From positions 1 to 36,476 of the forward strand of contig JBBEBM010000019.1 of the NCBI GenBank assembly GCA_040882355.1: a DNA stretch of 36,476 nt, read 5' to 3'. The notes beneath the pieces are model-generated. The model had not been told where the DNA came from, did no database searches, and saw only the letters and a list, made by a program, of their open reading frames with translations. A program made the translations under genes and the position numbers. This DNA comes from Dehalococcoidia bacterium (GTDB lineage Bacteria > Chloroflexota > Dehalococcoidia > DSTF01 > RBG-16-68-14). This document shows positions 78 through 34,606 of this stretch, one piece after another; position 1 is the first letter of the stretch; each line of letters begins with the position of its first letter.

Positions 78-569
78 CTAGCCCGCCGTCGCGGCCGCCG
101 GCTCGGCGATGGGGGTCAGCTCCCAAGCGTCCTTCTTCTGCAGCTCGCGCGGCGGGTCGATGTAGATCGCGCCCCAGCCGCAGGCGTCCTCGCACAGGCG
201 GCAGCCCGTGCAGCGTTTCTCGACGAGCGTCGCCGTGCCGAAGAAGTCGCCCACCTGGCGCTCCGTGTCGCCCAGGAAGAGCGCGTCGAAGGGGCAGATC
301 TGGATGCACAGCTCGCAGCCGCTGCCGATGCAGTTGTCCTCGATGACGATCGCCTTCGGCCACTCCTTGCGCGGGAACGTGCGGCAGACGTCGCCGACCT
401 CGTCGAGAATCGCCTCGGGCGGGCAGACGACGCCGCAGGCGCCGCAGTCGATGCACAGGTCAGGGTCGATGACGTGGAGGACGTTGCGCTCGCCGGAGAT
501 CGCCTCGGTCGGGCAGCGCTTCGTGCAGGCCGTACAGCCGATACAGGTCTCGATGATGGTGTAGGGCAC
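78..569 (-). CDS. 4Fe-4S binding (poly)ferredoxin
   Basis: Four CxxCxxCxxxC-type motifs (CIGCTACTKRCP, CIDCGACGVVCP, CIGSGCELCIQICP, CTGCRLCEDAC); GAGGAG RBS before the GTG start. Confidence 0.9.
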   Translation of the reverse strand: MPYTIIETCIGCTACTKRCPTEAISGERNVLHVIDPDLCIDCGACGVVCPPEAILDEVGDVCRTFPRKEWPKAIVIEDNCIGSGCELCIQICPFDALFLGDTERQVGDFFGTATLVEKRCTGCRLCEDACGWGAIYIDPPRELQKKDAWELTPIAEPAAATAG

Positions 570-674
570 GCCTGGCTCCTCAAGCCTCCGTCATGAATAT
601 CGACAGCCAAGTGTGAGTATATAGTCCGCCAGATTCAGACGCAAACGAGGAGGCGTTCTCTATGAGCGAGCCCC

Positions 675-3104
675 TTACTCGTCGTCGCCCTCTGCTTCCT
701 CACCCTCGTCGTCTTCCTCCTCCTCCAGCAGCACTTCGCGGCTGCCGGAGCCCTCCGCCGGTCCGACGACGCCCTGCTCCTCGAGCTGGTCCATGATCCG
801 CGCCGCTCGCGGGTAGCCGATGCGCAGGCGTCGCTGGAGCATCGAGGTCGAGATGCGGTTGTGCTCGGCCGCCAGGTCGATCGCGCGCTGGAGCATCGGG
901 TCGTCTGTGCTGGCTGCCTCCTCGGCTTCGGCCTGCTCCTGCACTTCATCCAGCAGGTGGTCGAAGACCTCACGCTCCAGCTCCTGGAAGCGGTCCTGCG
1001 TCCAGAAGTTGACGAGGCGCTCGATCTCCTGGTCGGAGACGTAGACGCCCTGCAAGCGCTTCGGCTTGGCGGCGTCGGTGGGCAAAAAGAGCATGTCGCC
1101 GCGGCCGAGCAGCTTCTCGGCCCCTGCGATGTCGAGCACCGTGCGCGAGTCGACCTGCGAGCTCATCGAGAAGGCGATGCGCGTCGGGAAGTTCGCCTTG
1201 ATCAGCCCCGTCACCACGTCGACGGACGGGCGCTGCGTCGCGACGATCAGGTGGATGCCGGTCGCGCGGGCGAGTTGGGCCAGCCGGCAGATCTGGCGCT
1301 CCACCTCGTAGGGCGCGGCCATCATCAGGTCCGCGAGCTCGTCGATGATGATGACCCAGTAGGGCAGCTTCGTCGGGCAGCGCTTGTGCTTGTTGTAGGT
1401 CTCAAGGTTGCGGCAGGCGAGCGCCGCGAAGCGCCGGTAACGGCTCTCCATCTCGTGGATCACCGCTTGCAGCGTGCCGACGACCTGGTCGACGTCGGTC
1501 ACGATCGACGAGAACGCCAGGTGCGGGATCTTCGAGAACGCCGACAGCTCGACGCGCTTCGGGTCGATCATGACGAAGCGCACCTCTTCGGGCGACGCGT
1601 GCATCAGGATGCAGGCGATGATCGCGTTGATCGCCACGCTCTTGCCGGAGCCCGTCGCGCCGGCGATGAGCAGGTGCGGCATCTTCGCCAGGTCGGCGAC
1701 GGACGGTTCGCCCGCGACGCTCTTGCCCAGGGCCAGCGTCAGCCGTGAGCGAAGCGACAGGCGGCGGAACTGCGCGGACTCGATGATGCTACGCAGCGTC
1801 ACGAGCGAGGCGGTGTGATTAGGCACCTCGATGCCGACGAACGGCTTGCCCGGCACAGGCGACTCCAGCCGCAGCGAAGGGGCGGCGAGCGCGAGCGCGA
1901 GATCGTTGGCGAGCGTGGTGATCTGGTTCACGCGCACACGCGTGCGCGAGACCTCCTCGACGTGCGTCTTCGGCTGGCCCTCGCGGTCGAGGAGCGGCCG
2001 GCCCGATGCGTCGCGTTCGACGACGTTGCGCGTCTTTACCTCCCAGCCCGGCTCGATGCCGAACTGCGTGACGGTCGGGCCCTCGTTGACCTGCACGACG
2101 CGCGCGTCGACGCCGAACGAAGCGAGCGTGTCGGCGATGAGGCTGGCGCGGGCCGCGTTGTCGACGTGGCCCTCCTCGGGCGGCGCGACGTCGAGCAGGA
2201 TGTCGAGCGGCGGGAGCTGCCAGCCGTCATGTGCTTTCCGCGGAGCGTCCGGATCGAGGTCGTCCAGCTCTCCATCTTCGTCGCCCTCGTCCAGCGCGAG
2301 GCGTCCCTGTTCGCCAACGGTCGATAGCTCCTCTTCGTTTTCCTCCTCCTCCTCGTATTCTTCGTCTTCCTCTTCTTCGTCCTCGTACTCCTCTTCGTCC
2401 TCCTCGATCTCCTCATCGGACGCCGTGCCCGGTTTTGCCTGCTGCGCCCAGATCACGCTGTCGAGCGGGATCTTCTCGGCGCCCTGAGCGGGCGGGCGCG
2501 TCGGGAAGATCAGGTCGACCAGCGCGTGGCCCGACTCCCAAGTGCGTTGCGGGAGGCGCCAGCTCCAGACCTTTTGCGCGCCGATACCCAGGCCTCGCAG
2601 CGCCGCGACGAACCCTGGTGGAGAGACGATCGCGAACGCGGCGGCGGGCATCGCCAGCCAGACCAGAATGCCGATCCAGTTGCCGGTGATCAGGTGGCCC
2701 AGGTCGCCGCCCGCGGTCACTTCGTGCAGGTAGACGCCGCCCAGTTGCCAGCCGGGCCGGAAGAAGGCGAGCAGGCCTGCGGTAAACACCGCGGCAAGCG
2801 CACCGACCGCCCACGGCTTCCAATCGTAGAACGCCCAATCGAGACGCCTGCGTACGAGGCAGAAGCCGAGGAAGGCGATGAGCGCAACGAAGAGGAAGAT
2901 CATCAGCCCGAAGGTCTCGACCAGGGCGTCCCGGAAGCTGGTGACGCCTCGCGTGGCCGGCACCAGGAAGGGCACCGAAAGTAGGGCGAGGATGAGCAGC
3001 GCGATGCCCACCGCCTCGAGGCGGAAGAGCAGGTCCCCCGCCGTCGGCGAGGCGCCGCGCCGCGCGCGGGACTTGGGGCGAGGCCTCAGTCTCAGGCTTG
3101 CCAC
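675..3104 (-). CDS. ftsK: DNA translocase FtsK/SpoIIIE
   Basis: N-terminal TM segments, acidic linker, PHLLIAGATGSGKS Walker A, IIIDELADLMM Walker B, ATQRPSVDV, C-terminal gamma domain (SMLQRRLRIGYPRAARI). Confidence 0.97.
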   Translation of the reverse strand: MASLRLRPRPKSRARRGASPTAGDLLFRLEAVGIALLILALLSVPFLVPATRGVTSFRDALVETFGLMIFLFVALIAFLGFCLVRRRLDWAFYDWKPWAVGALAAVFTAGLLAFFRPGWQLGGVYLHEVTAGGDLGHLITGNWIGILVWLAMPAAAFAIVSPPGFVAALRGLGIGAQKVWSWRLPQRTWESGHALVDLIFPTRPPAQGAEKIPLDSVIWAQQAKPGTASDEEIEEDEEEYEDEEEEDEEYEEEEENEEELSTVGEQGRLALDEGDEDGELDDLDPDAPRKAHDGWQLPPLDILLDVAPPEEGHVDNAARASLIADTLASFGVDARVVQVNEGPTVTQFGIEPGWEVKTRNVVERDASGRPLLDREGQPKTHVEEVSRTRVRVNQITTLANDLALALAAPSLRLESPVPGKPFVGIEVPNHTASLVTLRSIIESAQFRRLSLRSRLTLALGKSVAGEPSVADLAKMPHLLIAGATGSGKSVAINAIIACILMHASPEEVRFVMIDPKRVELSAFSKIPHLAFSSIVTDVDQVVGTLQAVIHEMESRYRRFAALACRNLETYNKHKRCPTKLPYWVIIIDELADLMMAAPYEVERQICRLAQLARATGIHLIVATQRPSVDVVTGLIKANFPTRIAFSMSSQVDSRTVLDIAGAEKLLGRGDMLFLPTDAAKPKRLQGVYVSDQEIERLVNFWTQDRFQELEREVFDHLLDEVQEQAEAEEAASTDDPMLQRAIDLAAEHNRISTSMLQRRLRIGYPRAARIMDQLEEQGVVGPAEGSGSREVLLEEEEDDEGEEAEGDDE

Positions 3105-3163
3105 GGACTCCTTCCGAACACCCTCACCCCACCAGCCTGCCCAGTCGGGCCGACTCGTCAGGC

Positions 3164-3172
3164 ATTATAGCA
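3164..3172 (-). promoter_or_regulatory. Extended -10 promoter element for ftsK
   Basis: TGCTATAAT on the minus strand about 60 nt upstream of the ftsK start. Confidence 0.55.
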
Positions 3173-3285
3173 AGACGATGCTCGTGTGGATAGATCCGAG
3201 GAGACGTGCATAAGCGGTTGAGCAGTTACGCCCACGAGTAGGCACAAGGATTAACGGATGGGGGTCTTATGTCGAAGGGGCCCTG

Positions 3286-3314
3286 GCTTCGAGCTTCCAG
3301 CCTCTAGCTTCCAG
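3286..3314. repeat. Tandem heptamer array
   Basis: GCTTCGA-GCTTCCA-GCCTCTA-GCTTCCA immediately after the rnj stop codon. Confidence 0.7.
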
Positions 3315-3316
3315 GC

Positions 3317-4972
3317 CTACACCTCTACGGACACCGGCAGCACCATCGGCCGCCGGCGCGTCTCCTGGTAGAGGAACTGGGCGATGGCGTCCTTCACCTT
3401 CGTGTTGACCACGCCCCACTCCGCGATGTGGTCCGCCCCCTCCAGCGAGGAGATCACCATCTCCTGAGTGCGCTTCATCAGGTCCTCCGACTCGTCGATG
3501 TCGACGAAGCCGCGCGAGACGACCTCCGGCTTGCCGACGACGCGGCCCGTCTTGCGCTCGATCGCCAGGATGACGACGACCATGCCGTCCGTCGCCAGGT
3601 GGTGCCGGTCGCGCAGGATCAGGTGGTCGATGTCGCCGACGCCCAGCCCGTCGACGTAGACGTGGTCGGCCGACACGCGCCCGTTGACGCGCGCGCCTTT
3701 TTCGTCGATCTCCAGCACGTCGCCGTCCGTGAGGACGAAGATGTGGTCGCCGGGAACGCCGACCGACTCCGCGAGGTCGCCGTGCAGCGCCAGGTGGCGG
3801 TACTCGCCGTGGATCGGCACGAAGTACTTCGGCCGTACGAGCGAGAGGATCACCTTCAGCTCTTCCTGTGCGGCGTGGCCCCGCACGTGGACATCGGCGA
3901 TACGGTTGTAGAGCACCCGCGCCCCCAGCTTGAAGAGGTTGTCGACGGTGCGATACACGAGCGACTCGTTGCCAGGCACCGCGCTGGCGGAGAGCACGAC
4001 GGTGTCGCCAGGGACGATGGTGACGTGCTGATGGTCCTGGTTCGCCATCCGCGTGAGAGCTGAGGTCGGCTCGCCCTGGCTCCCAGTCGTGACGATCGCC
4101 AGGCGGTTGTGGGGGATGTGGTCGAGCTCCTTGACGCTCACCATCATTCCTTTGGGCGCGTTCAGGTAGCCGCGCTGCATCGCCATCTGCACGTTGTCCA
4201 CCATGCTACGTCCGGTGATGAAGACGCGCCGGTCGTTCGCGACGGCGGCGTCGATCACCTGCTGGACGCGGGCGATGAGCGAGGCGAATGTCGTGATGAT
4301 GATCCGGCCGGGCGCGGTCGACATAATGTTCCGCAACGCCACGCCCACGACCTGCTCCGATGGCGTGTAGCCCGGTATCTCGGAGTACGTCGAGTCGGAG
4401 CACAGGAGCAGGACGCCCTCGGTGCCGTAAGCGGCGAGCTTGGGCAGATCGGTCGACTGCTCCATCACGGGCGTGTGGTCGAGCTTGAAGTCGCCGGTGT
4501 GGATGACGGTGCCCACCGGCGTCTTGATCGCGAGGCCGCTCGAGTCGGGGACGCTGTGCGCGACCGTGAACGGTTCGACCTGGAAGGGGCCCTCCTGGGC
4601 GCGCTGGCCCGCCTTGAGGATGCGGATGCTGGCCTTCTTGAGCAGCTTCGCCTCCTTCAGCTTCACAGATACGAGGCCCTCGGTCAGCGGCGTGCAGTAG
4701 ACCGGCACGTTGATCTGGTGGAGGATGTACGGCAGCGCACCGATGTGGTCTTCGTGGCCGTGGGTGAGGAAGATCGCCAGCAGCCGCACGCGGCCCTCCA
4801 GGAGGTAGCTGACGTCCGGGATCACGAGGTCGATGCCGAGCATCTCCTCTTCAGGGAACATCAGGCCGGCGTCGACGGCGATCGCCGAGCCGTCGTACTC
4901 CAGGATCATCATGTTCTTGCCGATCTCGCCGAGACCGCCTAGGGGAATAACGCGTAGCTTCTTGCGGACCAT
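3317..4972 (-). CDS. rnj: Ribonuclease J
   Basis: LGGLGEIGKNM, THGHEDHIG metallo-beta-lactamase motif, TGDFK, TGSQGEP, HGEYRH, RRPMVLPV C-terminus. Confidence 0.97.
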   Translation of the reverse strand: MVRKKLRVIPLGGLGEIGKNMMILEYDGSAIAVDAGLMFPEEEMLGIDLVIPDVSYLLEGRVRLLAIFLTHGHEDHIGALPYILHQINVPVYCTPLTEGLVSVKLKEAKLLKKASIRILKAGQRAQEGPFQVEPFTVAHSVPDSSGLAIKTPVGTVIHTGDFKLDHTPVMEQSTDLPKLAAYGTEGVLLLCSDSTYSEIPGYTPSEQVVGVALRNIMSTAPGRIIITTFASLIARVQQVIDAAVANDRRVFITGRSMVDNVQMAMQRGYLNAPKGMMVSVKELDHIPHNRLAIVTTGSQGEPTSALTRMANQDHQHVTIVPGDTVVLSASAVPGNESLVYRTVDNLFKLGARVLYNRIADVHVRGHAAQEELKVILSLVRPKYFVPIHGEYRHLALHGDLAESVGVPGDHIFVLTDGDVLEIDEKGARVNGRVSADHVYVDGLGVGDIDHLILRDRHHLATDGMVVVILAIERKTGRVVGKPEVVSRGFVDIDESEDLMKRTQEMVISSLEGADHIAEWGVVNTKVKDAIAQFLYQETRRRPMVLPVSVEV

Positions 4973-4980
4973 GTGCTCCT

Positions 4981-5595
4981 TTACAGCAGAGGGATCTGCA
5001 CCGGTTCCGGCTCCTTCGGCTTCGCGTCGTCGATGAGCGCTTCAGCCAGGAGCCCCGGCAGCTTCCGAAAGTCCTGTTCGATGGTGCGGCGCAGGCTGCC
5101 CTGATGGAGCGCCGCCGCTGGGTGGTACATCGGTACCACGAGCACGCCGTCGACGCGCTTGGGCTGGCCGTGGATGCGGCTGATGGACTGTCCCTGGAAG
5201 TAGCGGCTCATGGAGAACCGCCCGAGAGTAACGATCACTTTCGGCCGGATGATCTCGAGCTGCCGGTCGAGCCAGGGCCTGCACTCGGCGATCTCGCCTG
5301 GCAGGGGGTCGCGGTTGTTCGGCGGCCGGCACTTGATCACGTTGCAGATGTAGACGTCCTGGCGGCGCAGTCCGATCGAGCCTAGCAGCTCGTCCAGGAA
5401 CTTGCCGGCCGGTCCGATGAACGGGCGCGCTTGCTGGTCCTCGTAGAAGCCCGGCCCTTCGCCGATGAAAACGATGTCGGCGCTGGGGCTGCCTTCGCCC
5501 GGCACGGCGTTGGTGCGCGTCTTCGCCAGATCGCACTTGGGGCAGACGGCGATCTCGCCGGCCAGCTCGTGCAGCGCGACGGCTTGATCCTCCAT
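4981..5595 (-). CDS. Uracil-DNA glycosylase family 4 (Fe-S)
   Basis: CPKC, GEGPG, PFIGPAG, KCRPPNNRDP, YHPAA motifs; start moved to the ATG (MEDQ) behind AGGAGGAG. Confidence 0.92.
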   Translation of the reverse strand: MEDQAVALHELAGEIAVCPKCDLAKTRTNAVPGEGSPSADIVFIGEGPGFYEDQQARPFIGPAGKFLDELLGSIGLRRQDVYICNVIKCRPPNNRDPLPGEIAECRPWLDRQLEIIRPKVIVTLGRFSMSRYFQGQSISRIHGQPKRVDGVLVVPMYHPAAALHQGSLRRTIEQDFRKLPGLLAEALIDDAKPKEPEPVQIPLL

Positions 5596-5596
5596 G

Positions 5597-5998
5597 CTAG
5601 CTGTTCTCCTCCTGTTGCACCGGCGCGCGACCACCGCGCAGGGACCCGTAGATGGTGGTGAGCGAGATCCCGAGCATCACGACCGCGAAGATGCGCCGTA
5701 GCGCATCGGCCTCGATAACGTCGGCGAGCAGAGCGGCGCCGAAGCCCGCGATTACGGCAGGCGGCGTGACCCACGCTACCGCCGGCACATCGACGTTGCC
5801 CCGGCGAAGGTGGGTCAGCGCCCCCACGATCGCAGTTCCGACGATCGCCGCGAGCGACGCGCCTTGCGCAATGTGCTGGTCTTCGCCGAGCAGCAGCACC
5901 ATCGCCGGCACGTAGATCGCTCCTCCGCCGATGCCGAGCAGACCCCCGGCGAAGCCGCCGATAAGGCCGATGATCAGTCCGAAGATTGCGTCGCTCAC
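5597..5998 (-). CDS. Sulfite exporter TauE/SafE (TSUP) family, half-size protein 2
   Basis: GLLGIGGGAIYVP, AQGASLA; GTG start overlaps the upstream TGA (GTGA). Confidence 0.85.
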   Translation of the reverse strand: MSDAIFGLIIGLIGGFAGGLLGIGGGAIYVPAMVLLLGEDQHIAQGASLAAIVGTAIVGALTHLRRGNVDVPAVAWVTPPAVIAGFGAALLADVIEADALRRIFAVVMLGISLTTIYGSLRGGRAPVQQEENS

Positions 5999-10157: not shown

Positions 10158-10352
10158 CTAGGCGGGTAGCTCGGGCTTGGTGACGGTGATCGCCTCGCGG
10201 CCGCGGTAAAAGCCACAGTAGGGGCAGGCGCGGTGGGGGAGGCGCCTGGCGTGGCACTGCGGGCACTCGCTTGTGGCGAACGTGCGCATGTGTTGGTGGC
10301 TCTGGTGCTTGCCCTGGCGCGATTTCGGCGTCTTCTTCTTGGGTACGGGCAT
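10158..10352 (-). CDS. rpmF: 50S ribosomal protein L32
   Basis: MPVPKKKT...CPQC...PHRACPYCGFYRG. Confidence 0.96.
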   Translation of the reverse strand: MPVPKKKTPKSRQGKHQSHQHMRTFATSECPQCHARRLPHRACPYCGFYRGREAITVTKPELPA

Positions 10353-10356
10353 GTTG

Positions 10357-10890
10357 CTAGCTCCCTTCTCGTTTCACTGCCAGCTCGCGGAGCGCGCTCC
10401 AGCGCACGTCTGTCTCCGGCCGGCACGCGCAGGAGCCGGGGTTGAGATCGCGGCCGCAGCGGGGGCAGAGCCCCTTGCAGTCCGGGCGGCAGAGCGGCTG
10501 GATCGATAATGCGGCTGTCCAATACTGGCGCACCGCGTCTTCCAGGTCAAGCGTGTGGTGGGCGTCGACGCGGAAGGCCTCCGGGTCCTCCGGCGGGGGC
10601 TGGCTGGCCCCGGTGTGCAGGTCGACGCGCGCAAAGTACTCCTCGCGGACCTCGAGATCGACCGGCGTATCGACGTCGCGAAGGCAGCGGCTGCACGTCT
10701 CGCGCTGGACGCCGTGCAGCGCCGCGCTGACGAAGATGCCGTCCGCCGTGCGCAGGAAGACGGCGCGGCCGGCCACGTGCTCGTGGCGCGGCTCGTCGAC
10801 GTCGATCAAGACACGGTCGTCCATCTCGTAGACGCGAGTCGCGCCGATGGGCTCGCTGAGAAGCGTGGCAACGTTGTACTGCAGAGACAT
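10357..10890 (-). CDS. yceD: DUF177/YceD family protein
   Basis: CSRCL and LCRPDCKGLCPRCG..LN...C.C motifs; conserved position upstream of rpmF. Confidence 0.9.
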   Translation of the reverse strand: MSLQYNVATLLSEPIGATRVYEMDDRVLIDVDEPRHEHVAGRAVFLRTADGIFVSAALHGVQRETCSRCLRDVDTPVDLEVREEYFARVDLHTGASQPPPEDPEAFRVDAHHTLDLEDAVRQYWTAALSIQPLCRPDCKGLCPRCGRDLNPGSCACRPETDVRWSALRELAVKREGS

Positions 10891-10978
10891 GGTGTGGTCC
10901 TGTCTTCAGGATAGGAAGCGGGAGACGCTCTCGTCAATGAAATGTTGGTGAAATGCGGCGGCAGTTGACATAGCTGTC

Positions 10979-11008
10979 TTGCGCCTCAAGCAAACCGAAG
11001 CCTATAAT
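10979..11008 (+). promoter_or_regulatory. Sigma70-type promoter for the zinc-ribbon/recombinase-like/RNase H operon
   Basis: TTGCGC-N18-TATAAT. Confidence 0.55.
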
Positions 11009-11146
11009 CGCGGCGTAGTGGGCGGCCGGCTCAGTTGAGTTCGGGCCGGCCCGCCGTCGCCTCAAGACCCAAAACCAGCTTCATGAGGCCGCCACCAGAG
11101 GGCGGCGGTGGCACCGAGACATGCAGCATCACGCTGAGATACCCAA

Positions 11147-11848
11147 GTGACTTCAATCGCAGAGCTGTACGCGCTCCAGCAGATCGATCTCGCGCTCGAC
11201 GGCCAGCGCGCGTCGCTCACCGATACCGAGTCGCGTCAGGGCGAGTCCGAGGAGCTGGTCGAAGCGCGCGCGCTGGTCGAAGAGCGACGCGAGACGCTGC
11301 GGGCGGCGGAGAAGCTGTTCAAGGAGCGTGAGTACGAGGCGGACGAGCTGACCCGCAAGATCGAGCCCGTCGAGAAGAAGCTCTACGGCGGAAAGGTCAC
11401 CAGCCCGAAGGAGCTGGAGGACCTTCAGCAGGACATCGACAGCCTGAGGCGCCGCCGTAGCGAGCTGGACGACCTGGCGCTCCAGGCCATGGAGGCGCTC
11501 GAGGAGGCGGAGCGCGCCCACGAGGAGGCCCGGCGGGCCCTGCAGCAAGTTGAAGAGAGCTCGCAGGTGGAGCAGGCCGACCTGGGCACGCGACAGGGCC
11601 AGATCGAGCAGGAGATGTCGACGCTGCAGGAGGAGCGGGCCGCGCAAGCGGAGCTTGTCGACTCCCCCTTGCTGAAGCTCTACGAGCAACTGCGCGCCTC
11701 CCGCCAGGGGCGCGGTGTTGCCAAGGTGGAGGGCGGCGCCTGCCAGGGTTGCCGCATCTCGCTCCCGATGAGTCTGGTCCAGCGCGCCCGGGCCGGCACT
11801 GAGATCGTCCAGTGCAACAACTGCGAGCGCATCCTCTACGTGAGCTGA
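11147..11848 (+). CDS. Coiled-coil C4-type zinc ribbon protein (DUF164/zf-RING_7-like)
   Basis: LYALQQID start, long coiled coil, CQGC...CNNCERILY C-terminus. Confidence 0.92.
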   Translation: MTSIAELYALQQIDLALDGQRASLTDTESRQGESEELVEARALVEERRETLRAAEKLFKEREYEADELTRKIEPVEKKLYGGKVTSPKELEDLQQDIDSLRRRRSELDDLALQAMEALEEAERAHEEARRALQQVEESSQVEQADLGTRQGQIEQEMSTLQEERAAQAELVDSPLLKLYEQLRASRQGRGVAKVEGGACQGCRISLPMSLVQRARAGTEIVQCNNCERILYVS

Positions 11849-11849
11849 G

Positions 11850-13259
11850 ATGAAGGCGGTCGGCTACTTCCGCGAGGGCGCCACGAACGGCAAGGTGGAG
11901 CCCCTCGCCAAGCAACACAAGGCCTTCCTGGAGTTCTGCGAGCGGCACGGCTACGACGTCGCCGCCACCTTCGTCGAACCGCTGGAGGCGGACGGCCAGC
12001 GGGCTGGCTTCCGCCAGCTCGTCGACTTCCTCCGTCGCCCTGAGAAAGGCTTCCTCCTCGTCGTCGCCCGCTCCCTCGAGGCGCTGGGCGGCGACATCAA
12101 GGAGGCCGCGCGGCGTTACTTCCAGCTCGAGAGCCTCGGCGCTCGCGTCGCGTTCTTCGCCAGCGCCGCCGACCCGGTGGCGCAGCTCGTGCGGGGCTGG
12201 TCGGACGAGTCGGGCAGCGCCGCCCTGAGCGAACGCGTGCGCGCCGCGATGCGCCGCAAGGCCGTTCGCGGCGAGGTGCTGGGCCGGCCGCCGTATGGCT
12301 ACAAGGTCGGCAGCCGGCGCAGGCTCGAGCTAGTGCCGGACGAGGCGGTCGTCGCTCGTTACATCTTCCGCATGTATCTCCACGAGAGCATGGGCATCCG
12401 TCTCATCGCCCGCCGCTTGAACGAGGAAGGGCTGCGCACCCGTCGCGGCGGCAACTGGAGCATGGTGAGCATCCGCGACATCCTGCGCAACCGCGTCTAC
12501 CTGGGCACCTACTCTCGCTTCGGAGTGCGCGTGCCCGGCAGCCACCCCGCCCTGATCACCCCCGACGACTTCCGCGCCGTCCAGGACCGCCTGAACGCCC
12601 GGCGCAACAACTACGGCCACCGCCAGCCCTCGCCGTTCCTGCTGGCCGGCTTGGTGCAGTGCGGACACTGCGGCAACAAGATGATCGGCGTCTCCAGGCG
12701 TCAGAGCTGGACGCGGCGCAGCGGCAGTGAGGGCAAGGCGTCATATCGCTACTACCAGTGCGAGTCGCGCACCAACCAGAGCATGTGCGACTACCACACG
12801 CAGCGCGCCGAGGCACTCGAGGAGAAGGTGCAGACAACGCTCGGCGACCTCGACGCCGACGCGCTCCTGCCCGCGGCCGGCAACGAGGCGGCGGTGCTGG
12901 GCGAGTGGGAGGGGGAGGCCCGCCGCCTGCGTACCCGCGTTCGCCAGATGGACCGCCGCCTCGATGAGTACCTGGCGGCGGCGGCCAAGCAGCGCATCAG
13001 CCGGGAGCAGCTCCAGAAGCTGAGCGTCGGTACCGCGGCGGAGCGGCTCAAGCTGGAGGAGGCGGTGGAAGGCGTGGAGCACAAGATCCGGGAGCAGTCC
13101 GACGCCAGCGAACGCCGCAAGGCCCGCGAACGCTCGCTCGCCCGGCTCCTCGACGGCTGGAAGACGCTCGCCATCGAAGAGAAGCAGACCCTGCTGCGAG
13201 AGCTGGTCGACCGCGTCGTCGTCCACGACGAGGGCGTCCAGGTGCACCTCCGGCCTTGA
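11850..13259 (+). CDS. Large serine recombinase-family protein with degenerate catalytic domain
   Basis: Resolvase-like N-terminus, GRPPYGY, IARRLN..G, ILRNRVYLG, HPALI recombinase domain, CGHCG...YYQC zinc ribbon, coiled coil; YxRxS motif reads YFREG. Confidence 0.88.
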   Translation: MKAVGYFREGATNGKVEPLAKQHKAFLEFCERHGYDVAATFVEPLEADGQRAGFRQLVDFLRRPEKGFLLVVARSLEALGGDIKEAARRYFQLESLGARVAFFASAADPVAQLVRGWSDESGSAALSERVRAAMRRKAVRGEVLGRPPYGYKVGSRRRLELVPDEAVVARYIFRMYLHESMGIRLIARRLNEEGLRTRRGGNWSMVSIRDILRNRVYLGTYSRFGVRVPGSHPALITPDDFRAVQDRLNARRNNYGHRQPSPFLLAGLVQCGHCGNKMIGVSRRQSWTRRSGSEGKASYRYYQCESRTNQSMCDYHTQRAEALEEKVQTTLGDLDADALLPAAGNEAAVLGEWEGEARRLRTRVRQMDRRLDEYLAAAAKQRISREQLQKLSVGTAAERLKLEEAVEGVEHKIREQSDASERRKARERSLARLLDGWKTLAIEEKQTLLRELVDRVVVHDEGVQVHLRP

Positions 13260-13269
13260 GCGAGGCGGA

Positions 13270-13704
13270 CTGCTGATCGCAGCCGAAGCCTCCGCCAGCG
13301 ACAGCGTCATCGCCTACGCCGACGGCGCGTCGCGCGGCAACCCCGGGCAGGCGTCGCTCGGCTTCGTCATCTACGACGGCGCCGGCCGCGAGCTGCACAC
13401 CGGCTCCCGCGCGCTCGGCCGCGCCACGAACAACGAAGCCGAGTACAACGCCGCCATCGCCGCGCTGGAGGCTGCGCTTGGCCTGGGCGCGCGACAGGTC
13501 GAGCTGCGGATGGACTCGGAGCTCGTCGTGCGACAGCTCGCCGGGCGCTACAAGGTGCGTAACCCGCGCCTCCTCTCGCTCTACAAGCGAGTGCTCGCGC
13601 TGCGCGACCGCTTCGATCGCGTCACCGCCGTCCACGTCCCGCGCGAGCAGAACCGTGTCGCCGACCGCCTCGCGAACGATGCGCTCGACCACTCCGAGCG
13701 ATGA
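13270..13704 (+). CDS. rnhA: Ribonuclease HI family protein
   Basis: Frame of ORF 13510..13704 extends upstream as ...IAYADGASRGNPG...ATNNEAEY...MDSELVVRQ...HVPREQN.VAD.LAN; start probably CTG at 13270 or 13273. Confidence 0.9.
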   Translation: MLIAAEASASDSVIAYADGASRGNPGQASLGFVIYDGAGRELHTGSRALGRATNNEAEYNAAIAALEAALGLGARQVELRMDSELVVRQLAGRYKVRNPRLLSLYKRVLALRDRFDRVTAVHVPREQNRVADRLANDALDHSER

Positions 13705-14792
13705 CCCGCCGGCCCGGGCGCAAGCCGGCGCCCCTCTACCTCGCGCACGTGGTGCCTGGGCTCGAGGAGCTCGCGTGGGAGGAGCTGCGCGAGCGCACGC
13801 CGGCCGCTCTCAGCATCGCGACGTGGTCGGGCTTCGACCGTCGCGCGGGCGCGCTGCTGTTCAGGTCGAGCGCAGACCTGGAAGACCTGCTAGCGCTACG
13901 CCTCATCGAGGACCTCTTCGCCGTCGTGGCAATGACCCGACAGCTTCCGCCCGGCCGCGCCGGTCTGCGCGTCATCGAGGGCCTGGTCGAGAAAGCGGAC
14001 ATCGATCCCGCCCTGGCGCTGCTTCGCCAGACGGGCCCGCGACGCTCCGCTGCTCGCCCCACCTACCGCGTCGTCGCGCGGACGGCGGGCGAGCAAGCCT
14101 TCCGGCGCATCGACGCGCATCGCGCCTGCCAGGTGGCGTTGGCGCAGCGCTTTCACCGCTGGCGGTTGGTGGAGGACGGCGCCGCGCTGGAGTTCTGGCT
14201 CCAGGTGGTCGGCGAAGAGGCCGCCTTCGCGCTGCGCCTTTCGAGCGCTTCGATGCGCCAGCGGACCTATCGAGACGCCAGCCTGCCCGCCGCCCTCAAG
14301 CCCACCGTCGCCCACGCGCTCGTGCGCCTGGCCCGCCCCGGACGCGGCCCGTTGCTCGACCCGATGTGCGGCACCGGTACTGTCCTCGCAGAGGCGGCTG
14401 ACGCAGGCCTCGCCGTGCTGGGCGGCGATGTCGACGCCGCAGCGCTGGAGGCGGCGCAGGCCAACCTGCGGGCGGTTGGCGCACGCGATGCGCTCGTTAG
14501 GTGGGATGCCGGACGGCTCCCGATAGCGGACGGTGCCGTGGATGCTGTCGCCTGCAACCTGCCGTGGGGCAAGCGCCATCGCATCGGCAGCCTGGACGGG
14601 CTCTATCGTCGCGTGCTCGCCGAGGCGCGACGTGTGGCGCGGGCCGGCGGGCGTATCGCGGTCCTTACGGCGGAACGAGCCGTGCTGGAGCGCATCGCCA
14701 GGAAGCAGCGAGGCCTCACCGTCGAGCGAAAGCTGGCCGTGGTCGTGCGCGGCGCTGACGCGTGGGCGTTCGTCTTTCGCAAGACCGATTGA
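13701..14792 (+). CDS. THUMP-domain SAM-dependent RNA methyltransferase (Trm11/Trm14/RlmL-like)
   Basis: PGLEEL, LKPTVAHAL, LLDPMCGTGT, CNLPWG motifs. Confidence 0.85.
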   Translation: MTRRPGRKPAPLYLAHVVPGLEELAWEELRERTPAALSIATWSGFDRRAGALLFRSSADLEDLLALRLIEDLFAVVAMTRQLPPGRAGLRVIEGLVEKADIDPALALLRQTGPRRSAARPTYRVVARTAGEQAFRRIDAHRACQVALAQRFHRWRLVEDGAALEFWLQVVGEEAAFALRLSSASMRQRTYRDASLPAALKPTVAHALVRLARPGRGPLLDPMCGTGTVLAEAADAGLAVLGGDVDAAALEAAQANLRAVGARDALVRWDAGRLPIADGAVDAVACNLPWGKRHRIGSLDGLYRRVLAEARRVARAGGRIAVLTAERAVLERIARKQRGLTVERKLAVVVRGADAWAFVFRKTD

Positions 14793-14823
14793 TTCGCCAC
14801 CGCCGCTCTCGCTAGACTGGATC

Positions 14824-15249
14824 GGAGCCAGGAGGCCGGGTGGCCGCTTCCCGCCGTCAGGCGGGGAGAGGAACGTCCGAGCTCCACCGGGCAAGGTGCC
14901 GGGTAACGCCCGGGCGGGGTGACCCGATGGAAAGTGCCACAGAAACACACCGCCCCGGGCCGGCCGGGGCCGCAAGGCCCCCAGAAACTCCCCGATGCTG
15001 TCGGGGTGGCCCGGGGTAAGGGTGAAATGGTGCGGTAAGAGCGCACCGGCGCCCTCAGTAATGCGGGCGTTGGGTAAACCCCACCTGGAGCAAGGCCAAA
15101 TAGGAGGACGGTCCGATTCGTCGGACAGGGGTGCCCGGCCCCGTCCTCGGGTAGGCTGCTAGAGCCTGTCGGTAACGGCAGGCCCAGAGAGATGGCCACC
15201 GTCCGCCTCACGGCGGATACAGAACTCGGCGTACAGGCCGCCTGGCTCC
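14824..15249 (+). ncRNA. rnpB: RNase P RNA (bacterial type A)
   Basis: P1 GGAGCCAGG/CCTGGCTCC, GAGGAACGTCCGAGCTC, GAAAGTGCCACAGAAA, GGGTGAAA..GGTAAGAGC, GGTAAACCCC..GAGCAAG, ACAGAACTCGGCGTA; followed by a T-run. Confidence 0.97.
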
Positions 15250-15301
15250 ACCCTCTTTTTCGCGAAGCGCGCGTGTGTTCTCGCTTTCCCTGGGCGAGCC
15301 C

Positions 15302-24922: not shown

Positions 24923-25025
24923 CGTGCCTTCGGTAGCGCGGCTGCCGTAGTCCGCCTCCGGCGGACGGTAGGCCCGGTGCGCTTTGCGCCCCCACCTTTC
25001 GGCGGGTTTGCCCTTTTCGAGCACG
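24923..25025 (-). promoter_or_regulatory. c-di-GMP-I (GEMM) riboswitch
   Basis: AAAAGGGCAAACCCGCC-GAAA-GGTGGGGGCGCAAAGC...GGCCTAC...GCTACCGA with P1 CGTGC/GCACG. Confidence 0.9.
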
Positions 25026-34510: not shown

Positions 34511-34606
34511 CTCCGAAAAAGGCAAACCCGGCGAAAGCCGGGGACGCAAAGCTGCGGGTCTACCGTCCCGACGCCCGTCGGGGCCAGGATGGCCGGGCTA
34601 CCGGAG
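34511..34606 (+). promoter_or_regulatory. c-di-GMP-I (GEMM) riboswitch
   Basis: CTCCG-AAAAAGGCAAACCCGGC-GAAA-GCCGGGGACGCAAAGC...GGTCTAC...GCCGGGCTACCGGAG. Confidence 0.93.

Follow-up and report, generated by a model that had tools for sequence, protein, structure and literature searches.

Large serine recombinases (LSRs) are the phage-type integrase class, in which specific DNA half-sites are bound by two domains, the recombinase domain and the zinc ribbon. Among other serine recombinases, the Tn3/gamma-delta resolvase acts as a repressor at res sites, and SpoIVCA is an active, host-recruited enzyme for developmental excision. In the accessible sections of a review of recruited mobile-element genes, all host-recruited serine recombinases are active enzymes, and the terms "catalytically inactive" and "inactivated" do not occur there (PMC8987985). 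Here, we analyzed an LSR-like gene in a stretch of 36,476 nucleotides (contig JBBEBM010000019.1 of the Dehalococcoidia bacterium assembly GCA_040882355.1), hereafter called the window. An earlier note, made from the DNA letters alone, had proposed that this gene encodes a domesticated, integrase-derived pseudoenzyme, and this proposal is now strongly supported, because purifying selection, vertical single-copy inheritance at a fixed locus and the loss of a complete catalytic set are found together. We favor, with moderate confidence, an anciently domesticated LSR that no longer recombines DNA, is retained for binding specific DNA sites, and is produced together with the zinc-ribbon protein encoded directly upstream.

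The LSR-like gene (Table 1) is uninterrupted and begins with an ATG located 1 nt past the TGA (11846-11848) of the zinc-ribbon gene. A Pfam scan of its product recovered the Recombinase (PF07508, residues 163-250) and Zn_ribbon_recom (PF13408, residues 264-327) domains, whereas no Resolvase (PF00239) match was obtained at E≤0.01. The Resolvase hidden Markov model (HMM) also missed this N-terminal domain in a scan of the whole 3.33-Mb assembly, where its sole match is a truncated fragment on another contig. Among relatives, PF00239 matches some members weakly (26.4 bits in L043), and precomputed domain lists name it for most homologs. The C-terminal two thirds of the protein resembles the A118 (E 1e-10) and SPbeta integrases by sequence. 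An AlphaFold model generated from 72 family members (mean predicted local distance difference test score, 91.1; predicted template-modeling score, 0.75) matched the SPbeta integrase over its full length (9y66_C, Z 18.4). Its residues 1-127 matched (i) the catalytic domain of TP901-1 integrase (3bvp_B, Z 13.5, root-mean-square deviation [rmsd] 2.9 Å over 120 aligned residues), (ii) PhiC31 integrase (9teq_B, Z 13.0), and (iii) gamma-delta resolvase (2rsl_C, Z 12.2), while residues 142-469 matched Bxb1 integrase (9iub_D, Z 14.5, rmsd 3.6 Å, 226 aligned). Model helices 346-379, 385-415, and 419-435 form a long three-helix coiled coil at 346-435, and the four zinc-ribbon cysteines are invariant or at least 90% conserved among the 72 sequences. 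Taken together, the fold matches and Pfam domains indicate that all four LSR parts are present in the modeled protein despite the missed Resolvase HMM, as had been read from the sequence before, and that the protein is a member of the LSR family by descent and fold.

No curated NCBIfam family was reached by the LSR-like protein, the best being XisF (NF041201) with 88.1 bits against a cut-off of 375, and its matches in a protein atlas were the family's own clusters only. Fused forms were not seen among the best 120 homologs (464-477 aa) or the best 150 representatives (up to 541 aa), a search that did not extend to the "longer" length class. Long stop-to-stop frames of 659-716 aa among the class matches need not represent fusions. 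In L009, the zinc-ribbon and LSR-like genes lie in different frames.

The N-terminal domain has the fold of a serine recombinase catalytic domain and lacks its catalytic residues. The protein starts with MKAVGYFREG, placing G10 at the nucleophile position of the YxRxS motif, as noted before. Similarly, E77-A78-L79-G80-G81 lies opposite E-R-L-C-R of the genuine serine-recombinase fragment from the same genome, with both arginines of the DRxxR motif replaced (A78 and G81) in a mapping that combines a weak profile alignment (E 0.058) with the fold match. Among 308 family members, none carries the full set of R8, S10, R68, and R71 equivalents. The loss of serine, whose conservation the earlier note had suggested testing, is not uniform, since the nucleophile position varies freely (Pro in 83 members, Ser in 56, Ala in 29, Thr in 23, Gly in 22, and others in the rest), while the loss of the arginines proved general, with both missing in 306/308 members. 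Only two members keep D-R-L-G-R, and both belong to family f33 (L026 from genome G126 and L031 from genome G143); related f33 members keep the motif partly. These f33 members suggest descent from a live enzyme, and L026 and L031 may be intermediates of active-site decay. Moreover, no Ser, Thr, or Tyr is conserved in the N-terminal domain of 132 members, where Cys30 is the only one of the first 125 positions to reach 90% conservation. Judged by its sequence and context, the LSR-like protein thus appears to fail as an enzyme with regard to its serine, its arginines, the Resolvase HMM, and a mobile setting. In the available part of a study of Tn3 resolvase, mutants of Y6, R8, S10, D36, R68, or R71 showed greatly reduced cleavage and recombination, whereas site binding was not strongly inhibited (PMC2794168).

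Two further observations concern the catalytic domain. Cys30 (codon 11937-11939), at the end of the first helix, is kept in 302/308 members while the classical catalytic positions drift, and possibly has a structural role. The only Resolvase HMM match of the genome is a 150-aa open reading frame (ORF) with the canonical motifs ARVSTDRQ and ERLCR (L061 1435-1887; G000 contig C4:85967-86419). No recombinase or zinc-ribbon domain follows its catalytic domain, and it appears to be what is left of a real LSR after truncation.

Among 301 genomes searched in its class, Dehalococcoidia, 155 carry the LSR-like gene, with exactly one match in each (E≤1e-60). Carriers comprise 125/223 high-quality class genomes and 93/192 genera; most genomes are metagenome-assembled genomes (MAGs), and the counts over 301 genomes, as well as the 49-genome synteny set described below, include one unpublished genome (G244). 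Presence is near all-or-none by family, with the gene in 10/10 genomes of f4, 17/17 of f19, 17/17 of f25, and 16/17 of f9, and in 0/12 of f23, 0/7 of f17, and 0/7 of f27. At a looser threshold (E≤1e-5), 231/301 class genomes matched, the extra matches being ordinary LSRs at ~1e-20. Of 400 other genomes sampled across the phylum, 12 matched (E≤1e-40), all of them labeled as the same order or class and none as another class, while the gene was absent from families f79-f86 (0/75) and from 52 further families (0/280). Depositors mostly named the carriers Dehalococcoidia or Chloroflexota MAGs, including Tepidiforma, and a few were named Chloroflexia, Anaerolineaceae, or Thermoflexaceae. Orthologs in Tepidiforma MAGs show ~50% identity.

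A word-index search returned 1318 matches at E≤0.001 among 7999 scored candidates, of which the best 120 homologs are 59-100% identical to the query. An exhaustive search of representatives gave 174 matches at E≤1e-30, 5777 at E≤1e-10, and 28455 at E≤0.001, and the next match in the query's own genome has an E-value of 1.5e-5. The step from 174 to 5777 representatives argues for a discrete group inside the LSRs. The only multi-copy case observed is a public MAG with three zinc-ribbon/LSR-like loci on three contigs (L092, L095, and L128), each ~60% identical to the query, which may reflect a strain mixture in the bin or real multiplication. A divergent form of 419-442 aa (L048-L050; family f9, genus g19), present in 16/16 genus g19 genomes searched, retains the recombinase and zinc-ribbon core only, with ~50% identity across residues ~91-336. 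Its neighbors do not include a zinc-ribbon gene but are of a housekeeping type (a Maf/tRNA methyltransferase fusion, a PIN protein, and a phosphoesterase).

To evaluate selection, we calculated the ratio of nonsynonymous to synonymous substitution rates (dN/dS) by a simple Nei-Gojobori count over 58 pairs of distinct loci at 80-97% identity, pairs that are not phylogenetically independent. The whole LSR-like gene gave 0.124, a purifying value, and the domain values (Table 1) are lowest in the Recombinase domain, where 18/93 positions are at least 90% conserved among 132 members. The dN/dS of the LSR-like gene was lower than that of the zinc-ribbon gene in 53/53 pairs and lower than that of yceD in 36/39. 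Over 76 loci, mean pairwise identity was 55.5% for the LSR-like protein, compared with 43.7% for the zinc-ribbon protein and 43.4% for YceD; from pair to pair, its identity varies in step with that of the zinc-ribbon gene (rho 0.86) and of yceD (rho 0.67). Furthermore, the composition of the gene is host-like (GC 0.70; third-position GC 0.92), and its codon usage agrees with that of nine neighboring genes (r = 0.92), as had been noticed earlier. These comparisons indicate strong purifying selection on every domain and point to vertical, single-copy inheritance. Constraint is strongest in the domain with which real integrases read DNA.

The gene directly upstream encodes a product whose Pfam matches, CT398_CC (PF24481, E 5.4e-17) and Zn_ribbon_9 (PF02591, E 6.3e-10), are both above cut-offs, while the NCBIfam CdsZ equivalog was not reached (67 bits against a cut-off of 275). 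The coiled-coil hairpin and C4 zinc ribbon place it in the CT398/CdsZ family, alongside CT398 (CdsZ), HP0958 (FlgZ), MSMEG_4306, and ML1638. According to the available part of a study of this family, its homologs neighbor rpoD/dnaG, rnhA, or the RNase P RNA gene, so that the pair with rnhA is known outside Dehalococcoidia, and RpoN accumulation in H. pylori depends on the family member of that species (PMC3372290). An excerpt of a preprint predicts that mycobacterial and chlamydial members bind the RNA polymerase beta' subunit (bioRxiv 10.64898/2026.07.15.738315). Unlike in the published CT398 neighborhoods consulted, a recombinase-like gene adjoins the family member here, and the word "recombinase" does not occur in the available text of the family study (PMC3372290).

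Gene order was compared in two overlapping sets, consisting of (i) 49 genomes with LSR-like proteins of 33-75% identity and (ii) the 80 best loci from species-representative genomes. In the first set, 44/49 genomes (43/48 without G244) have a CT398-like gene as the immediate, co-directional upstream neighbor, mostly with gaps of -1 to +11 nt; in the second, a zinc-ribbon gene is directly upstream in all 77 loci with enough upstream sequence. RNase H follows directly in 42/77 loci of the second set and the methyltransferase present in the window in 2/80. RNase H genes in this downstream position often start at a GTG or ATG that shares bases with the LSR-like stop codon (GTGA or ATGA), although one genome is entered twice among these rows. 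The conserved operon context proposed earlier therefore holds for the zinc-ribbon gene, but its "RNA-metabolism" character does not. Relatives carry the LSR-like gene at the same locus, and close homologs there lack att-like repeats, contrary to the refuting conditions that the earlier note had named. The zinc-ribbon gene is also present in each of five class genomes that lack the LSR-like gene, and three of these have RNase H directly after it; non-carriers with this direct succession imply that the LSR-like gene sits, by gene order, inside an older zinc-ribbon/RNase H pair.

The remaining surroundings are of a housekeeping type. Upstream, on the minus strand, are genes for YceD, L32, FabD, FabG, and NusB; downstream are those for RNase H, a UPF0020 methyltransferase, rnpB, and an aminotransferase. 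No mobile genes are nearby and no att-like flanking repeats were found, a scan of 10800-15300 giving only short, G+C-rich, chance-like matches, which bears out the reported lack of mobile cargo. While the LSR-like gene does end just before RNase HI, the RNase HI frame contains no ATG, GTG, or TTG between the LSR-like stop and 13510. TTG 13256, overlapping that stop, is out of the RNase HI frame and runs into a stop after six codons. Three further samples from that study yielded contigs that are identical at 13256-13300, with no indel, and the arrangement is therefore not an error of a single assembly.

The predicted operon promoter lies ~140 nt upstream of the zinc-ribbon start. A block of TTGc, ~17-18 nt, and TATAATC is aligned across the orthologous intergenic regions, and of 107 distinct upstream regions, 70 contain CTATAATC, whereas shuffling gave 13 at most. 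Divergent from it is a promoter-like site for yceD-rpmF (10908-10937, minus strand; TTGACG, 18 nt, TATCCT), whose position is conserved among relatives. Rfam matched nothing in the yceD/zinc-ribbon intergenic region. Elsewhere in the window, two c-di-GMP-I-GGC riboswitch aptamers (RF03167) were found at 24928-25021 (minus strand; 61.6 bits) and 34512-34606 (plus strand; 71.9 bits).

Table 1. Positions of the LSR-like gene, its domains, and neighboring features in the 36,476-nt window
Feature	Position	Strand	Basis and remarks
LSR-like gene (ORF)	11850..13259	+	469 aa, ATG start, uninterrupted; TGA stop 13257-13259
N-terminal resolvase-fold domain, aa 1-108, without catalytic residues	11850..12173	+	Fold match, motif alignment; dN/dS 0.143
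Long helix E and linker, aa 109-162, including conserved GRPPYGY	12174..12335	+	Model helix 109-139; conservation; dN/dS 0.113
Recombinase domain, aa 163-255, most constrained part	12336..12614	+	PF07508 E 3.5e-21; dN/dS 0.048
Zinc-ribbon domain, aa 256-335, cysteines C271, C274, C304, C313	12615..12854	+	PF13408 E 2.4e-11; dN/dS 0.122
Coiled-coil motif, aa 336-440	12855..13169	+	Model helices; aligns with integrase C-terminal domains; dN/dS 0.148
C-terminal strands returning to zinc-ribbon domain, aa 441-469, and TGA stop	13170..13259	+	Model
Zinc-ribbon protein, CT398/CdsZ/FlgZ-type, 233 aa: coiled-coil hairpin and C4 zinc ribbon	11147..11848	+	Pfam CT398_CC, Zn_ribbon_9
RNase HI, start uncertain (CTG 13270 or 13273, or ATC 13276)	13270..13704	+	RVT_3 E 2.7e-26, RNase_H E 6.2e-13
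YceD, divergent; marker of fixed locus	10357..10890	-	Pfam YceD E 5.5e-22; divergently upstream in most loci
L32, after YceD	10158-10352	-	L32p E 2.1e-18
RNase P RNA (rnpB), class A; local context	14828..15249	+	Rfam RF00010, 282 bits
Putative sigma-70-type promoter of zinc-ribbon/LSR-like operon: TTGCGC 10979-10984, 18-nt spacer, TATAAT 11003-11008	10979..11008	+	Sequence; function inferred

These observations describe a lineage of pseudo-recombinases whose members are now probably DNA-binding proteins and not recombinases. In the history that we propose, an integrase gene would have become fixed in an early dehalococcoidian, at a position between a CT398-like gene and RNase HI, would then have lost its nucleophile and catalytic arginines, and would have been inherited vertically in single copy since. 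Selection would retain the non-catalytic machinery, in which the resolvase-fold domain and helix E would make a dimer and the coiled coil would make protein-protein contacts. Because the DNA-reading, dimer-forming, and contact parts are all retained, the protein would be a dimeric, site-specific DNA binder that holds DNA uncut and acts as a regulator or an architectural factor. It would share a messenger with the CT398-like protein, and translation of the two would be coupled in most cases. That DNA binding is the retained activity seems likely to us from homology. More tentatively, the LSR-like protein could be the DNA-targeting partner of the CT398-like, putatively RNA polymerase-associated protein. 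Bolder still, and in our estimate rather doubtful, is a two-protein transcription module in which the LSR-like protein is the DNA-addressing subunit, its dimer, docked through the recombinase and zinc-ribbon domains on long, specific, pseudo-palindromic sites of the chromosome, delivering the co-translated CT398-type factor and, in many lineages, RNase HI. Were this module real, a phage integrase would have become a class-wide housekeeping regulator of transcription or of R-loop control.

Several results weigh against a DNA-binding protein that works with the zinc-ribbon protein and is devoid of chemistry. With respect to the partnership, the zinc-ribbon gene was not matched in 5/5 carrier genomes of f41 and f9 (92-100% complete), while the same profile matched 5/5 other genomes, and the partnership is therefore not obligatory. 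Further, no zinc-ribbon position is conserved in 39 carrier lineages and yet different in 5 lineages without the LSR-like gene, and the gene order could persist by operon inertia alone. With respect to DNA targets, 31 aligned yceD/zinc-ribbon intergenic regions and the k-mers of the 107 upstream regions yielded no binding site or operator; what they share is yceD coding sequence and the pair of divergent promoters. With respect to catalysis, R8 and a serine at position 10 are both kept in 47/308 members, and a serine lies within positions 9-11 in 78/308. The displaced serine that had been raised as a possibility is not found as a conserved residue of the N-terminal domain, as judged by conservation, but L026 combines D-R-L-G-R with YFREDS, its serine being one residue out of register; L031, the other D-R-L-G-R keeper, has no serine there. 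Residual chemistry may therefore be conceivable in a few members, namely the R8 and S10 keepers and L026. A complex prediction for the LSR-like and zinc-ribbon proteins, run with both as alignments and without controls, gave interface scores (ipSAE) of 0.00 and 0.00, which speaks neither for nor against binding.

Among the other explanations, the one that survives best, though we regard it as unlikely, is an architectural or synapsing chromosome protein that is independent of the zinc-ribbon protein. Its dimers would bridge DNA through their coiled coils, much as integrase dimers synapse attachment (att) sites, with no strand exchange, and the neighborhood would be the ancestral landing place. 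The purifying selection on the coiled coil and the dimerization domain (dN/dS 0.148 and 0.143), the f41 and f9 carriers without a detectable zinc-ribbon gene, and the lack of carrier-specific zinc-ribbon residues all fit this explanation. It leaves the tight coupling to the zinc-ribbon gene in 77/77 loci unexplained beyond inertia, however, and since the f9 form is alignable only at residues ~91-336, the coiled coil is not universally recognizable; no repeated candidate sites were identified either.

Less probable still is that the protein binds RNA or RNA:DNA hybrids and works with RNase HI, for example on R-loops or structured RNA, as the earlier label of an RNA-metabolism operon would have it. 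At this locus, rnpB and an RNA methyltransferase gene do lie downstream, and RNase HI follows directly in 42/77 loci, often with the GTGA or ATGA overlap. RNase HI is nevertheless not adjacent in the other 35/77, the methyltransferase is adjacent in only 2/80, and the zinc-ribbon/RNase H pairing exists without the LSR-like gene. Moreover, in the solved integrase-DNA complexes matched by the model, the recombinase and zinc-ribbon domains bind double-stranded DNA.

A still-active recombinase with a non-canonical active site, using a displaced serine or Cys30, appears very improbable. While Cys30 is nearly invariant (302/308), a serine within positions 9-11 is found in 78/308 members, and L026 has both D-R-L-G-R and YFREDS, the N-terminal domain has no conserved Ser, Thr, or Tyr, and just 1/125 positions reaches 90% conservation. 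In the model, helix 19-33 would carry Cys30 at its distal end, remote from the strand-1 loop that bears the nucleophile in real enzymes; in addition, both arginines are missing in 306/308 members, and the locus has neither att-like repeats nor cargo. Finally, a prophage or island integrase that was inactivated recently and is being lost would explain the integrase-family sequence and fold, but it is refuted by the intact, constant length (464-477 aa in the best 120 homologs), the occurrence in 155 genomes from 93 genera as a single copy at one locus, the dN/dS of 0.12, the host-like composition, and the absence of mobile genes nearby.

A domesticated, non-recombining LSR that binds DNA would be a clear prokaryotic case of exaptation from integrase to binding protein, kept for what seems the whole history of a major environmental class, with a DNA-binding domain more constrained than neighboring ribosome- and transcription-related genes. 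For the fields of site-specific recombination and mobile-element domestication, it would be of interest as a natural experiment that separates the chemistry of these widely used genome-engineering enzymes from what else their parts contribute, and it may offer a naturally inert, probably highly specific binder of long DNA sites. It would also open a new way to study the CT398/FlgZ/CdsZ family, which is poorly understood and to whose gene it is coupled in nearly all carriers. Experiments are possible, since Tepidiforma includes cultured species, as stated in the available part of a published report (PMC10284905), and Tepidiforma MAGs carry orthologs.

Our literature search, which left subscription journals outside its scope, found no inactive or domesticated LSR described in Dehalococcoidia or elsewhere. 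Like the Hin-type invertases and XisF, the LSR-like protein would be a mobile-element recombinase taken over by its host; unlike them, it has lost its active site, whereas they still cut and rejoin DNA. Catalytically inactive domesticated transposases are reportedly found among the PiggyBac-derived partners in ciliates, where catalysis is lost and binding of DNA or partners is kept. That likeness is one of analogy only, because the ciliate proteins are unrelated in fold, belong to eukaryotic hosts, and take part in programmed DNA elimination. With the Tn3/gamma-delta resolvase, the LSR-like protein may by analogy share a (regulatory) role based on DNA binding alone, although the resolvase is a transposon-borne enzyme and the LSR-like protein is large, host-fixed, and apparently inactive. 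With the phage integrases SPbeta SprA, Bxb1, PhiC31, A118/LI, and TP901-1, it shares the same build, including a zinc ribbon with an inserted coiled coil; unlike these large serine integrases, it is without nucleophile serine, catalytic arginines, att sites, and cargo, and it occupies a fixed, single host locus.

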